Shown here piece by piece: positions 6,169 through 62,336 of a stretch of DNA of 64,000 nt. Source of the DNA: Octopus vulgaris (Eukaryota); the NCBI GenBank assembly GCA_951406725.2, contig OX597830.1, positions 52,886,001 through 52,950,000 of the forward strand, given 5' to 3'. The notes under the pieces are model-generated. The model was not told the DNA's origin and ran no database searches. It worked only from the letters and a program-made list of their open reading frames with translations. The position numbers and the translations under genes are program-made. Position 1 is the stretch's first letter. Each line of letters begins with the position of its first letter.

Positions 6169-6560
6169 CAAAATAAGAAAATGGAGAAATACATCGAAAT
6201 CAAATATCAATTACCAGATAATACTCAATCACATACTTTATTAAACCACCACATAAGAAACTATAAGGTTAAACATAATAATGCAGGGTAAAACAGTGTA
6301 CATGAAGGAGTGTACATAAAATAGTAATGTTATACAATAAGTAGAATACATATAATAGAAAATAAATATAAGTACACATAAATATAAATATAAACTATAT
6401 CTTACAGCTGTTTCGGCCATGTAGATAAGCATGTCTCATTTAACTTATATTAGCCATTTATGGTAGGTCAATATGTAGTTATAAATGAGACATTTACAGA
6501 AACATCCTAAGGCCTCTTCGGAGATTACAAATTAGATTACATACATACTTATATAGGTGT
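6169..6560 (-). mobile_element. Penelope-like pseudo-LTR fragment; same family as 38670-39045
   Basis: Reverse-complement homologue of 38670-39045; carries a hammerhead motif; abuts (TA)n. Confidence 0.75.
6399..6525 (-). ncRNA. Type I hammerhead ribozyme motif (CCGAAGA core variant, long stem II)
   Basis: atct-CCGAAGA-ggcc..(atgtctcattta/taaatgagacat)..ggcc-GAAA-C-AGCT-GUA-agat. Confidence 0.75.
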
Positions 6561-6767
6561 GGGTACATACCCATAATAAAACATATACATATACATATGA
6601 GTGCATATACTCATACTCCTATACATATAAATATACATATACAGTATATGTTATCCCATGGAGGGTTGCATTTACAAACCCTATCTCAATTTGTGTGTAT
6701 ATATATATATATATATATATATATATAAGTATATATAGATTCAGATGAGTATGGTACTTAAGTTGAG

Positions 6768-6989
6768 TTTAAGGCGTCGAACTGGCAGAAACATTAGCAC
6801 GCCGGGCGAAATGCTTAGCAGTATTTCGTCTGCCGTCACGTTCTGAGTTCAAATTCCGCCGAGGTCGACTTTGCTTTTCATCCTTTCGGGGTCGATTAAA
6901 TAAGTACCAGTTACGCACTAGGGTCGATATAATCGACTTAATCTGTTTGTCCTCTCTGTGTTTAGCCCCTTGTGGGTAGTAAAGAAATA
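6768..6989 (+). mobile_element. SINE family B with 15-bp TSD
   Basis: TSD ggtacttaagttgag at 6753-6767 and 6990-7004. Confidence 0.9.
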
Positions 6990-7079
6990 GGTACTTAAGT
7001 TGAGGCACCAGAATTTAGAATGGTATTATCCATACAATTTCAAAATAAGGTGATTAAACTCACAATAAGCCCTTATTTA

Positions 7080-7315
7080 CACCATAAATTTAAAGGTAAA
7101 AATTTCATCTGGTTTAATACCCCATACAGTTGTACATTATCCACAAACATATACAGAAAATTTATGGCTATTTTAGAAAAAAACTTCCCTACTTCCCATA
7201 GATATAATAGCATCTTTTCATGTAAGACAGTTCGAATCTCATACTCTACTCTTCCCAATATGGATACCATTATAGCTAGATTAAATAAGAAGAATATAAA
7301 ATTAGCCAGTATTGT
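7080..7315 (+). mobile_element. Penelope-like element ORF fragment (region between RT and GIY-YIG, Neptune-like)
   Basis: IWFNTPYS...TNIYRKFMAILEKNFP.SH.Y.SIF...TVRISYS..PNM matches the PLE motif IWFNPP(Y/F)S...HFP...IFN..TVKISYS..PNM. Confidence 0.8.
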
Positions 7316-7759
7316 CAATAATAATAATAATAATAATAATAATAATAATAATAATAGTCAAGACGATTCGATTGTAAGATATTTTATTTGTTGAACGATA
7401 TTTCAACAGTACGTCTGTCTTTGTCAAGTTCAAAATGAGAAGTAATAAAAATTCAAAATTACAGAAATTTAAGCATAAAGTATGAACGAGAGCAAACAGC
7501 ATCTACACGCTGATGGAATGTCATCTTCAGTTTTTAAGTTACAATTTTATAACAGGCGAAAAGATAAAGACAGAAAAAAACAGAAAAAAGATGACAGAAA
7601 AAAAGGAAAGAAAAAGAGAGAAAGAAGAATATTTAATCAAACAGTTTTGTATAAATTTGATGATATTCGCCTGTCATTCATTCCTAGAGGGCGTGACGTT
7701 AATAACCTGCAAACATATTTCTCCTCATATATTCTGAGAACTGAAAGTGAAGCAGATTC

Positions 7760-7942
7760 AGAATATAGAAAATTCAGAACGCTGGAGATTATTGATGAAC
7801 TGATGTTTGACATCATTGGCCATTTCATTGAGGCATCGAGAAATTGTGTTATTACTTAGTGGGATCTTCTTCATAATATTATCAGGTTTTTCATACATAA
7901 CAGTTGACAAAACCTCTTTGATAACCGGGTGAAGTATTGATG
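7760..7942 (-). mobile_element. hAT (Buster/Charlie, ZBED5/SCAND3-like) transposase fragment
   Basis: Minus-strand ILHPVIKEVLSTVM...KKIPLSNNTISRCLNEMANDVKHQ contains the PLSNNT.SR...EMA.D signature. Confidence 0.8.
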
Positions 7943-8421
7943 AGCAATATCACTCACTTTGGGAAGCAATGAACTACAGCATTAGAGGTTTTTAGCTCTT
8001 ATTTCTAGCAATGTAGGTGTTCCAACACCCTAGTCATATTTAGGGACAATTATAGTTTTCCTTTTTGGTAAAACATTGCATACAGCTGTTCATATTAAAT
8101 TATTGTACACACATTAGCGATTTGCTGAATCTGGCAGAGAAGCAAGTCCAGAAAGTGGTCCTGAGTGATGAGGCTATGGAATTAGCTGAAACTGGCTGAT
8201 CAGTATAGGGAATTCTTGATCAGTGCTTTTGGGTGATTACGGTCTCTGTCAGTGCATATATATATATATATACAATTATGTGCGTTAACTACAGCATTAG
8301 AGCGCTTTAGCTCTTATTTCTAATAATGTGTTTTAACACCTTACTGATATTTAGTGACAATTATTCTTCTTAGTAAAACGTTGCTCATTAATAACATATT
8401 AAATTGTTATATATATATATA

Positions 8422-8797
8422 CTAATACTATGACCCGGCGTTGCCGGGTCATAGTGCTAGTGCATGCATATACAGCTGCATGCGTGCGCACATACACACG
8501 AGTACTGTCAAATCTCAGACCAATCACATACACCTAGCTGGCATTCAATTGGCGTATCAAGTTTCGGCATTTTGATTGGGTTTTGGATAGAAAATTCACA
8601 AAAAAGTCACTTCTATTGATTTTTTAATGGCTTTGCAGGGTGACTGGGGAACTGTAAAGATGTGCACGATCACCCTTGGATGGTTTTGAATGACCATAGA
8701 AAGTGCGAGCCCTCTAACTGAAAAATTGTGGATTTGTATAAAGGACACACACACAGACAGACAGACAGACAGACATTTTGCTGTTTATATATATAGA
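8422..8797 (-). mobile_element. Non-autonomous Helitron-like element
   Basis: Minus strand starts A|TCTATATATA; terminal GC-rich hairpin actatgacccggc-gtt-gccgggtcatagt (8427-8455) just before the end. Confidence 0.7.
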
Positions 8798-8845
8798 TGT
8801 GTGTGTGTGTGTGTGTGTATGTGTGTGTGTATGTGTATGTGTGTG

Positions 8846-59597: not shown

Positions 59598-59854
59598 ATA
59601 CAAACATGCCTTATACCACTTGACAGCACAGCAGAGAAAACAAAAAAATGCTTTCAAGTCCTCAACAAACAAATGGTGTACACACACACACACACACACA
59701 CACACATACATGCGTGCACACATCTGCAAGGGATACGTTTCATCAGATTGTCTTGGCCTAAATGCTATACATAAACTTAGATATTTAAGTTCCTGTCAAC
59801 AATATCTCAAGCCAGCTTTAAATTACCAACGATTCCATCACCACCAACACCAAG

Positions 59855-60230
59855 TGGAGGCGCAATGGCCGAATGGTTAGAGCAGCAGACTTGCGGTTGG
59901 GGGATCGCGGTTTTGATTCCTAGACCGGGCGTTGTGTGTTTATTGAGCGAAAACACCTAAAGCTCCATGAAGCTCTGGCAGGGGGTGGTGGCGACCCCTG
60001 TTGTACTCTTTCGCCCCAACTTTCTCTCACTCTTTCTTCCTGTTTCTTGTCCCCAACTTCCTATGCAACCGCTGAGCCTGGATGCGCATTCATCCGTCTG
60101 TCGATGCTCTCGGTGTCGGGGGTTGAGCTGCTTTCTCTTTTGCGGGCCTTACGAATAGCAAAGGACCACGTTTCGGACTTCTCCCACTAATGGGACGAAG
60201 ACCGCTTTGCTCAACAAACAAACAAACAAA
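59855..60230 (+). mobile_element. SINE family C head/body with a different tail ending (CAAA)n
   Basis: First ~190 bp match the reverse complement of 5955-6148; remainder unrelated. Confidence 0.85.
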
Positions 60231-60959
60231 CCACCAACACCAAAACTTCTACCAGCACCAATGCCACCAGCATCACAACCACTACCTGATTTGTCCCTTC
60301 TTTGCTCTGTGAACTCTGGGTTTAGCTTGTGTGCCCTCGTCCTTTGACCCTGCAGTTCTTGCCTCAAGTCCAATCATTTACGTTTCATGATTTACTTATT
60401 GCCTGCGTTACATTTCAAACTTTCTACAATGCCTCCTCCCCCTCCTCCTCCTATTGCTGTTGCTACTATGGCTGCTGCTGCTGCTGCTAATACTTGTCCT
60501 ATAAGGTGGTCACAGTAAGAATGCTTTCGCTCATAGGGTTGTTCAGTCAGAGCTGACCTGGAGTTAAAGCTACTTCTATTACTTCCACCACCACTGCTAC
60601 TATGACTATTTTTCAAGCCTGTCCTCAATTCTATAGACATATGTATCTGTTCCAGTGATGCATGAAGTACATCAGAAACAGTGGTTTTAATATCACACTA
60701 CACTCCATTATGTACCGACCAGCCAACGCTCAGTAAATTGTATCAAATGGCCACTGATGTCACTCTTACAATTACAAACTGGGCTCGTTTTGCAATGCTT
60801 AATCATTGCTTACGTAACAGCTGCTGCTGCTGCTGCTAAGTTTAAAAAGTGGTCTATATGCAAGAGTGTAGGGAATGCAGGGGTTTTACGGGTGGTTAGA
60901 CAGAGATTGTGTATTTGGCAGTCATGTGTACTGTGGCCTTGTGCACCCTTCTCTCTCTC

Positions 60960-61680
60960 ATATATATATATATATATATATATATGTATATGTGTGTATA
61001 TATATATTATATATATATATATGTATATATATATATATATATATATATATATATATGTATATATATATATATGCATATATATATATATATATGTATATGT
61101 ATATATATATATATATATATATATATATATATGTATATGTATATATATATGCATATATATATATATATATGTATATATATATATATATATATATATATAT
61201 ATATATATATATATATGCATATATATATATATATGTATATGTATATATATATGCATATATATATATATATGTATATGTATATATATATGCATATATATAT
61301 ATATATGTATATGTATATATATATGCATATATATATATATATGTATATGTATATATATATGCATATATATATATATATATGTATATATATATGCATATAT
61401 ATATATATATATATATATATATATATATATATATATATATATATATATATATATATATATATATATATATATATATATATATATATATATATATATATTT
61501 ATATTTATATATATATATGTATATGTATATATATATATATATTTATATTTATATATATATATTTATATATATATATATATATATATATATATGTATATGT
61601 ATATATATATATACATATATATATATATATATATATGTATATATATATTTATATATATATATATACAAATATATATATAC
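60960..61680. repeat. ~720-bp interrupted (TA)n array with higher-order periodicity
   Basis: Regularly spaced TGCA and TGTA interruptions. Confidence 0.95.
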
Positions 61681-61709
61681 ATTTTATTTTTTATTTTGCA
61701 CATTACTTA

Positions 61710-61821
61710 ATTAAGACTTGGTCCTCTGACCAATCAAAATATGCAAAACAGGCATAAAATACCTGTTTTGCATATTAGCATGAATTAGATATTTTGATTG
61801 GTCAGTGGACCAAGTCTTAAT
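61710..61821. repeat. Fold-back / MITE-like palindrome with internal hairpin
   Basis: attaagacttggtcctctgaccaatcaaaatat / atattttgattggtcagtggaccaagtcttaat. Confidence 0.8.
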
Positions 61822-62198
61822 CCAGTGACTTGGTTTTGGTACAGTTTCTATGATTCAGTGCCTTGCTTTCTAACACCAACCACCTTATAGAATGTACTGG
61901 ATGCATTTTTTGTGGCACCAGCACAATAGAAGTTGCCTTGTCCTTAGCAGGACAAAAGAATCCTTTCAAACCGAATGTTGTCTCTGATCAATTTCCCTAC
62001 TACTTTACATGTAGTTTTACATGTCTCTAGAACTAGGAGGTGAATTTGTAACTGTAACTCATATATATATATATATATGTATATGTGTGTGTGTGTATAT
62101 ATATATATATATATATATATATATATATATATATATATAATTGCATAATAAGGTAAAAACCAAGGCTGTATAGATATTAGAGCATTTATAGATAGAAG

Positions 62199-62250
62199 GT
62201 CTTACAGATGTTTCTAGGATATTAATTAATAATATCCCTTAATTGGAGAC
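62199..62250 (-). ncRNA. Mirror-arm hammerhead, decayed core
   Basis: gtct-CCAATTA-ag-ggatatt..aatatcc-ta-GAAA-C-AUCU-GUA-agac. Confidence 0.55.
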
Positions 62251-62294
62251 AGTGTGAGAGGAAACTAACTATGACTTAATTTTTCCTTCACACT

Positions 62295-62336
62295 GTTTCC
62301 GATGAAGAATTAATATCCTAGAAACAGCTGTAAGAC
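62295..62336 (+). ncRNA. Hammerhead motif (CCGAUGA variant), stem II partly deleted
   Basis: gttt-CCGAUGA-...-GAAA-C-AGCU-GUA-agac. Confidence 0.65.

Follow-up and report, generated by a model that had tools for sequence, protein, structure and literature searches.

Minimal type I hammerhead motifs at the 3′ ends of Penelope-like elements in the Octopus vulgaris genome

The window investigated here is a 64,000-nt stretch of the Octopus vulgaris genome (contig OX597830.1, positions 52,886,001 to 52,950,000; assembly GCA_951406725.2) that was originally predicted to hold about 14 minimal hammerhead ribozyme motifs in small retroelements. It has a G+C content of 36%, gave 125 tandem-repeat rows and consists of repeats to at least 61%. 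We found every predicted site to be a copy of a high-copy repeat family whose typical members form minimal type I hammerheads. Very probably, these copies are dispersed, mostly 5′-truncated 3′ ends of Penelope-like elements (PLEs), and the motif likely cleaves the parent RNA as a palindrome-paired dimer.

All 14 predicted coordinates correspond to the stem I end or the cleavage site of a hammerhead-homologous motif. Ten window stretches were used as queries against the 2.80-Gb assembly (227 contigs); each returned 297 to 2,395 first-look candidates, the best 40 of which were scored, and alignments of the nearest copies showed that an intact motif is the usual state in each family. When intact motifs of the families, taken from elsewhere in the genome, served as probes (after removal of four weak singleton clusters), the window gave 15 matches, comprising the 14 sites and an internal duplicate at 46465, while the reversed window and three shuffled controls gave none. 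Eight matches at seven sites were detected with a type I descriptor that required helix III to be palindromic and allowed both variant cores and an extra base following A9. Six of these were among the 14 (6399, 14915, 21910, 38526, 46391 and 48318), and the seventh, at 7397, belonged to an intact fifteenth site (7391-7433, minus strand) that was absent from the earlier list. A strict descriptor (stem I of at least 4 and no extra base) caught only one of the 14 sites and was too narrow for PLE-type motifs. Three further copies carry a single flaw, namely, a helix III mismatch (15027), a stem I of 2 bp (38674) or a mutated helix II base (42200). The other five are decayed in the core and at G12 (8937), by G12A (19503), by loss of stem I (36625), in the core (62199) or by a 10-nt helix II deletion (62295). 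Type I topology with both catalytic boxes and an N-U-H site was found in all 11 families and in 7 of the 15 window copies. The estimate of about nine families proved too low, as the 14 sites represent 10 families and the missed site adds an eleventh. The motifs were about absent from shuffled versions of the window, as the original prediction required. Four canonical-core matches compared to none in 40 of 40 local dinucleotide shuffles, and the eight matches obtained with variant cores compared to a mean of 0.025 in the same number of shuffles; a wider descriptor yielded eight in the window and six in total across 30 shuffles, and the reversed and complemented window gave no descriptor match.

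Further support came from tests that did not depend on the search pattern. The palindromic helix III, described earlier as the predominant form, was also recovered when it was not required: 20 of the 29 distinct inserts were palindromic (4 of 6 in the sampled regions described below), and five shuffled sets searched in the same way gave no matches. N7 and H17 are free positions of the hammerhead, and in 35 unselected family J copies, met by chance in flanks, these were the most variable motif positions (all four bases at N7), while variation elsewhere in the motif occurred mainly at CpG sites. Outside the window, we observed PLE families with an A3-U8 core pair and a helix II of 2 to 3 bp (L311-L335 and L024:2710-2734); 13 of 25 such loci had Neptune-like coding DNA upstream in sense. 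Stem I of this lineage, which was not part of the search pattern, showed double changes at six of six pairs among 21 distinct sequences, a level reached by none of 500 shuffles and far above that of slid controls. Covariation, put forward earlier as a check, was thus found in a lineage outside the window. Lastly, self-duplexes with energies of −8 to −14 kcal/mol were predicted for 7 of the 10 types of helix III palindrome, and no hairpin was predicted for the monomers.

The proposed association with PLEs was substantiated by the flanking sequences. Families B, C, F, I, J and K run upstream into DNA coding for PLE reverse transcriptase (RT) or GIY-YIG endonuclease; therefore, their window copies represent 5′-truncated 3′ ends of autonomous elements. 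Copies of family C are up to 100% identical, and one of them adjoins an open reading frame (ORF) for RT and GIY-YIG. Both domains were identified by Pfam at locus L231 (PF00078 and PF01541); the intact frame at L273 returned PF00078 only, at 29.5 bits against a cutoff of 29.6. The L231 endonuclease query produced 19,956 candidates, the best 150 of which, when scored, displayed 95 to 100% identity, many of them within frames of 776 to 847 amino acids. Among 12 loci fetched around C endonuclease matches, 10 had a frame of 675 to 847 amino acids, and the C motif followed in sense about 2.06 kb past the stop codon in six of these 10 and at 1.9 kb in a seventh. At four loci (L273, L275, L276 and L278), the motif was also present upstream of the frame, giving a 5.8-kb unit. 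The intact C element thus encodes a 776-amino-acid RT/GIY-YIG protein, with the C motif as its pseudo-long terminal repeat (pseudo-LTR). Inverted copies were common around the C loci, and the C linker reads Cx4CxxC, the Neptune-type linker described in PMC8557442. Many intact frames of 776 to 847 amino acids, and a 2-kb 3′ untranslated region (UTR) consisting largely of conserved microsatellite-like sequence, characterize loci L273 to L284, a Neptune-type PLE family of very recent origin.

For the remaining families, the links were found at fewer copies. Endonuclease-coding DNA with a CxCx5C linker was located in sense about 1.95 kb upstream of B at one locus (L336); no ORF was found upstream of B in four of five fetched stretches, one of which covered the wrong side. 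Such coding DNA also lies about 235 nt upstream of F at 3 of 16 loci (L122, L125 and L128) and about 600 nt upstream of I at 2 of 20 loci (L187 and L189), one locus in each case being the source of the query. Judged by linker motifs and by-eye likeness, the coding DNA of B, F and I looks Hydra-like. Of the 24 copies of family J, one (L002) is connected to a Neptune-like endonuclease, with no TA tract in between, and family K joins PLE coding DNA at 2 of 15 copies (L353 and L355) with weak scores. Within the sampled flanks, no linked ORF was found for A (28 copies), D (14), E (42), H (25) or a second J lineage (14). Upstream homology of family G was variable, with a PLE-like fragment beyond a short interspersed nuclear element at one duplicated locus. 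Across families, the motifs lie 30 to 270 nt from the element 3′ ends and share the orientation of the ORF wherever an ORF was detected; a family often has two alternative 3′ ends. The expected (TA)n association was clear: of 182 family copies, 157 had a (TA)n tract in the 320 nt that follow the motif on its 3′ side, compared to 26% of random positions. Family D was the exception (8 of 19 copies), and family K ends in (AAT)n. Head-to-head second copies were detected in eight of nine families tested. The elements hence display hallmarks of endonuclease-bearing (EN+) PLEs, namely, 5′-truncated, inverted and partial-tandem copies, an optional tail and microsatellite targets.

The claim of a large multifamily radiation was upheld by pattern counts across the genome. 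These amounted to 30,553 matches for the J-type pattern (control, 0), 12,040 for a generic core with a 6-nt helix III (control, 248) and 1,168 exact matches for the A3-U8 type (control, 0). In addition, sixty 10-kb regions at round coordinates (600 kb) were sampled; the sample and cluster counts include only matches with at least three Watson-Crick pairs in each of stems I and II. The sample contained 12 canonical matches, or 30 with variants included, 7 of which came from one tandem array; eight shuffled sets gave 0 to 2 and 1 to 4, respectively. No canonical-core match was present in the last 20 of the 60 regions, and J matches numbered 5 compared to 6.5 expected. Intact sites together with homologous decayed ones totaled 55, corresponding to about 257,000 genome-wide (bootstrap, 177,000 to 350,000); the 25 strictly intact sites correspond to about 117,000 (56,000 to 196,000), or 85,000 without the array. 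Strict matches in the fetched loci (279) formed 39 clusters. The earlier figure of about one motif per 5 kb therefore holds for the window, with its 15 motifs in 64 kb, but not for the genome, for which the sampled regions gave about one motif per 11 kb on average, with less than half of the motifs intact. This roughly 2.5-fold excess of the window arises partly because the probe library favors window families.

Drawing on published work (PMC4209133 and PMC6765202), we propose that, in a transcript spanning two pseudo-LTRs or tandem units, the two palindromes would pair through helix III and the paired motifs would cut slowly at N-U-H, trimming the element RNA. The element's GIY-YIG endonuclease would then nick a microsatellite, as published PLE work suggests, and target-primed reverse transcription from the 3′ end would usually stop early, leaving stubs that retain the ribozyme; A, D and E could be short nonautonomous units mobilized in trans. 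Solo copies in the genome are for the most part likely to be inert remnants, since stubs lack a same-strand partner, head-to-head pairs would give long hairpins and over half of the copies are decayed. Several observations weigh against this account. The ORF links of B and J consist of one locus each, and those of K are weak matches. The covariation shuffle ignores relatedness among copies, which inflates that test. Weak or no duplexes were predicted for the palindromes of D, J and K (+2.2, −1.7 and +1.6 kcal/mol), and the minimum-energy folds of the window C, E, B and I copies differ from the hammerhead fold. PLE minimal hammerheads cleaved poorly in vitro, even as dimers (PMC4209133), and U4C and position 6 changes, which several family cores carry, are expected to lower activity (PMC3088659).

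These points bear on a first alternative, that the motifs are noncatalytic hammerhead descendants, which either persist as a folded signal to the PLE protein or simply hitchhike on successful elements. Among the first 100 listed matches of the most abundant lineage, J, about two-thirds have A6U (counted by eye); this lineage has only a 4-nt self-duplex, and Naiad PLEs have spread without canonical hammerheads (PMC8557442). However, the 3-8 position stays Watson-Crick across the 39 clusters (C-G and U-A), with A-U in further families, and N7 and H17 vary as in catalytic hammerheads; we therefore regard this alternative as unlikely.

A second alternative, along the lines of the original prediction, is that most families are dedicated nonautonomous retrozymes that propagate as short units through transcription, self-cleavage, circularization and reinsertion. 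Among the window families, only A, D and E have the appearance of such short ORF-less derivatives. Family E forms head-to-tail units of 474 to 541 nt with the same junction at at least three loci and no ORF seen, and it is the only window family with retrozyme-like tandems. Family D has fixed ends: in all 18 scored copies, the end markers lie 198 to 211 nt apart. Flanking words of at least 9 nt were common to 14 of 18 own pairs, against 23 of 306 cross pairs (four were flagged as TA runs), so that the flanks resemble putative target site duplications. None of the 20 A copies extends more than about 25 nt upstream of the query start, and all begin just before the core, although the A query favors copies that reach its start point. 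Furthermore, we noticed an array of seven canonical minimal hammerheads with about 359-nt spacing at locus L191 (2278-4542), a retrozyme-like tandem with five motifs on one strand and two inverted. On the other hand, B, C, F, I, J and K extend into PLE coding DNA, ORF-less head-to-tail hammerhead units were found only for E and L191 and not in these six families, and same-strand tandem copies are rare outside E. Circular RNA is conjectural here: contigs of three runs presumed to be RNA and of one large run contain E and B, and their joints are explained by DNA arrangements. As an explanation for most families, dedicated retrozymes are thus very unlikely, and the originally proposed short ribozyme-bearing PLE derivatives fit A, D and E, while most resolved families are 3′ ends of autonomous PLEs. 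A third alternative, chance hairpins in AT-rich repetitive DNA, is refuted by the genome-wide and window controls and has virtually no probability left, even though relaxed descriptors give 1 to 4 chance matches per 600 kb and a few singletons are probably of this kind.

The site-by-site features are in line with the family assignments. Family B is represented by an intact motif at 6399-6525 (minus strand; U4C core, 100-nt helix II, 6-nt palindrome, predicted cleavage after 6403) within the 3′ stub of a Hydra-like PLE (about 6160-6650, minus strand). The K motif at 7391-7433 (site 7397) has a U3-A8 core and a loop-less helix III. Its element abuts, from the other strand, the (AAT)n run of a fragment at 6999-7316 (plus strand) that by eye resembles the thumb-linker region of a Hydra-like PLE and has no Pfam match. 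The decayed copy at 8937-8972 (minus strand) belongs to family J, with a family core of A6U, an extra A after A9, G10.1-C11.1 and a loop-less helix III; an assignment to family C was rejected. Two canonical-core A motifs, 14915-14978 (minus strand, site 14918) and 15027-15090 (plus strand), lie head to head in a pair (about 14780-15310) flanked by (TA)n tracts. Another family A 3′ tail occurs at 62587-62700 (minus strand), with no hammerhead homolog detected there. The I motif at 19503-19656 (plus strand), in a Hydra-like PLE 3′ stub, has a canonical first box and a 127-nt helix II; an early reading that it lacks the second box was ruled out by helix II lengths of 110 to 127 nt. The intact C motif at 21910-21954 (minus strand, site 21916) combines a U3-A8 core with U-U at the helix II base and lies in a 3′ stub of the very young Neptune-type family (about 21870-22260, minus strand).

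Family D, with a U3-A8 core, occurs as a 5′-truncated copy at 36625-36662 (minus strand) and as an intact motif with an extra G after A9 at 48318-48354 (minus strand, site 48321), the latter within an ORF-less element (about 48225-48425) with a fixed length of about 0.21 kb. The intact E motif at 38521-38578 (minus strand, site 38526; canonical core, 9-nt odd palindrome) lies in an element at 38282-38637, the family unit being about 0.5 kb. Head to head with it stands a B element (about 38642-39044, plus strand), whose motif at 38674-38799 has a U4C core, a 99-nt helix II and a stem I cut by the 5′ junction. This arrangement (38282-39044) sits between two (TA)n tracts, and its joint consists of about 32 nt of inverted B upstream sequence, possibly through a template switch or nested insertion. 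The F motif at 42199-42261 (plus strand; canonical core, 6-bp stem I) is part of a Hydra-like PLE 3′ stub. In the G motif at 46390-46505 (plus strand; canonical core), a local deletion and a 44-nt duplication resulted in two 3′ halves (sites 46454 and 46498). Two H motifs at 62199-62250 (minus strand) and 62295-62336 (plus strand) lie head to head; U4C is the family core and is retained in the second copy. Helices II of 99 to 127 nt thus occur at 6399, 38674 and 19503, and the extra base between A9 and 10.1 is present in D, J and K and absent in A, B and E. The 10.1-11.1 pair is G-C in B, D and J, A-U in A and E, U-U in C and I, and A-A in G and H. Replacement of G10.1-C11.1 by U-U or A-A recurs in unrelated families, namely, in these four and in about ten more clusters; U-U at the helix II base is a natural variant already reported in print.

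No host exon was found in the window: all 149 stop-free frames outside masked repeats were checked and gave only pogo-type transposase domains, in three of them. The suggested transcription of the motifs along with a host intron is therefore hypothetical. A broken pogo/Tigger-type transposase (CENP-B_N, HTH_Tnp_Tc5 and DDE_1) is located at 53526-54673 (plus strand). A perfect 102-nt palindrome at 47272-47373, with a (TA)16 center and two inverted pieces of a common short repeat, gave the top subthreshold microRNA-family scores in Rfam.

This genome could help to clarify the role of the hammerhead in PLEs: autonomous elements that are very young and still intact occur in it together with short derivatives and thousands of stubs, and the 3-8 pair exists in three Watson-Crick versions among its many independent families. 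It therefore constitutes a ready panel to determine which cores cleave and whether mobility needs cleavage. A bolder claim, which we consider doubtful, is that the genome is among the densest natural hammerhead collections (more than 43,000 pattern-intact motifs, about 250,000 with relics, at least 39 families), that its A6U, U4C and A3-U8 cores and 100- to 127-nt helices II are catalytically active, and that copies with a common palindrome on one strand, also when they belong to different families such as B and H, could pair within long host transcripts and cleave these. Schistosome hammerhead satellites may be denser. An effect on the host would matter if true but has no support yet.

The Octopus motifs correspond in most respects to the minimal hammerheads of metazoan PLEs (Cervera and de la Peña 2014, PMC4209133; here and below, comparisons refer to the accessible parts of the papers cited). 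Shared features are the type I topology with a short helix I and long helix II, a palindromic or loop-less helix III, the extra base after A9, the U3-A8 variant, many unrelated families per genome with mostly solo truncated copies, and opposite-strand pairs 100 to 700 bp apart. In contrast to that work, the Octopus copies far exceed the 2,000 to 9,000 reported there (about 4,000 in coelacanth and 9,000 in Xenopus), helix II reaches 127 nt, and G10.1-C11.1 is often replaced by A-U, U-U or A-A. The high-copy U4C, A6U and A3-U8 cores are not mentioned for PLE minimal hammerheads in those parts of PMC4209133. Our literature search found U4C, A6C and U3-A8 as natural cores and no A6U or A3-U8, although Luense, Weinberg and Breaker (RNA Biol) may describe variants. 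Elsewhere, over 6,000 hammerheads have been counted in a coral, up to 120,000 retrozymes in axolotl and 235 hammerheads in a squid genome paper; we found no published genome-wide hammerhead census for cephalopods.

Hydra-clade PLEs, including Hydra-1_Obim, and Neptune PLEs (Craig et al. 2021, PMC8557442) likewise have a C-terminal GIY-YIG domain and a 3′ hammerhead, prefer (TA)n and show inverted and partial-tandem insertions with a tail. The Hydra-1_Obim motif has an odd-length palindromic stem III, as do E and F. Also in common are the linkers, CxCx5C in B and Cx4CxxC in C. The clade is set here by motif and by-eye likeness and not by a tree; as a difference, the B and C 3′ UTRs are about 2 kb long. 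An Octopus PLE that has a hammerhead of this type and prefers (TA)n is already listed in the supplement of that paper; hence, the description of the radiation as unannotated is valid for Rfam but not for the literature. Rfam-based annotation misses these motifs, with no window match at gathering score and no hammerhead among the 150 matches listed of 325 by E-value; the figure of 235 for the squid genome points the same way. Non-LTR retrozymes (PMC7229834; bioRxiv 10.64898/2026.07.22.740005), which in animals are argued to derive from PLE pseudo-LTRs (bioRxiv 10.64898/2026.07.22.740005), resemble E and L191 as short ORF-less tandem type I units; unlike them, most window families are not tandem, and their motifs are of the minimal PLE type. 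Thus, PMC4209133 already describes the architecture, with its U3-A8 core and extra base, as well as the diversity of families and the pairs on opposite strands, while the abundance, the 100- to 127-nt helices II and the high-copy A6U, U4C and A3-U8 cores are what is noteworthy in Octopus.

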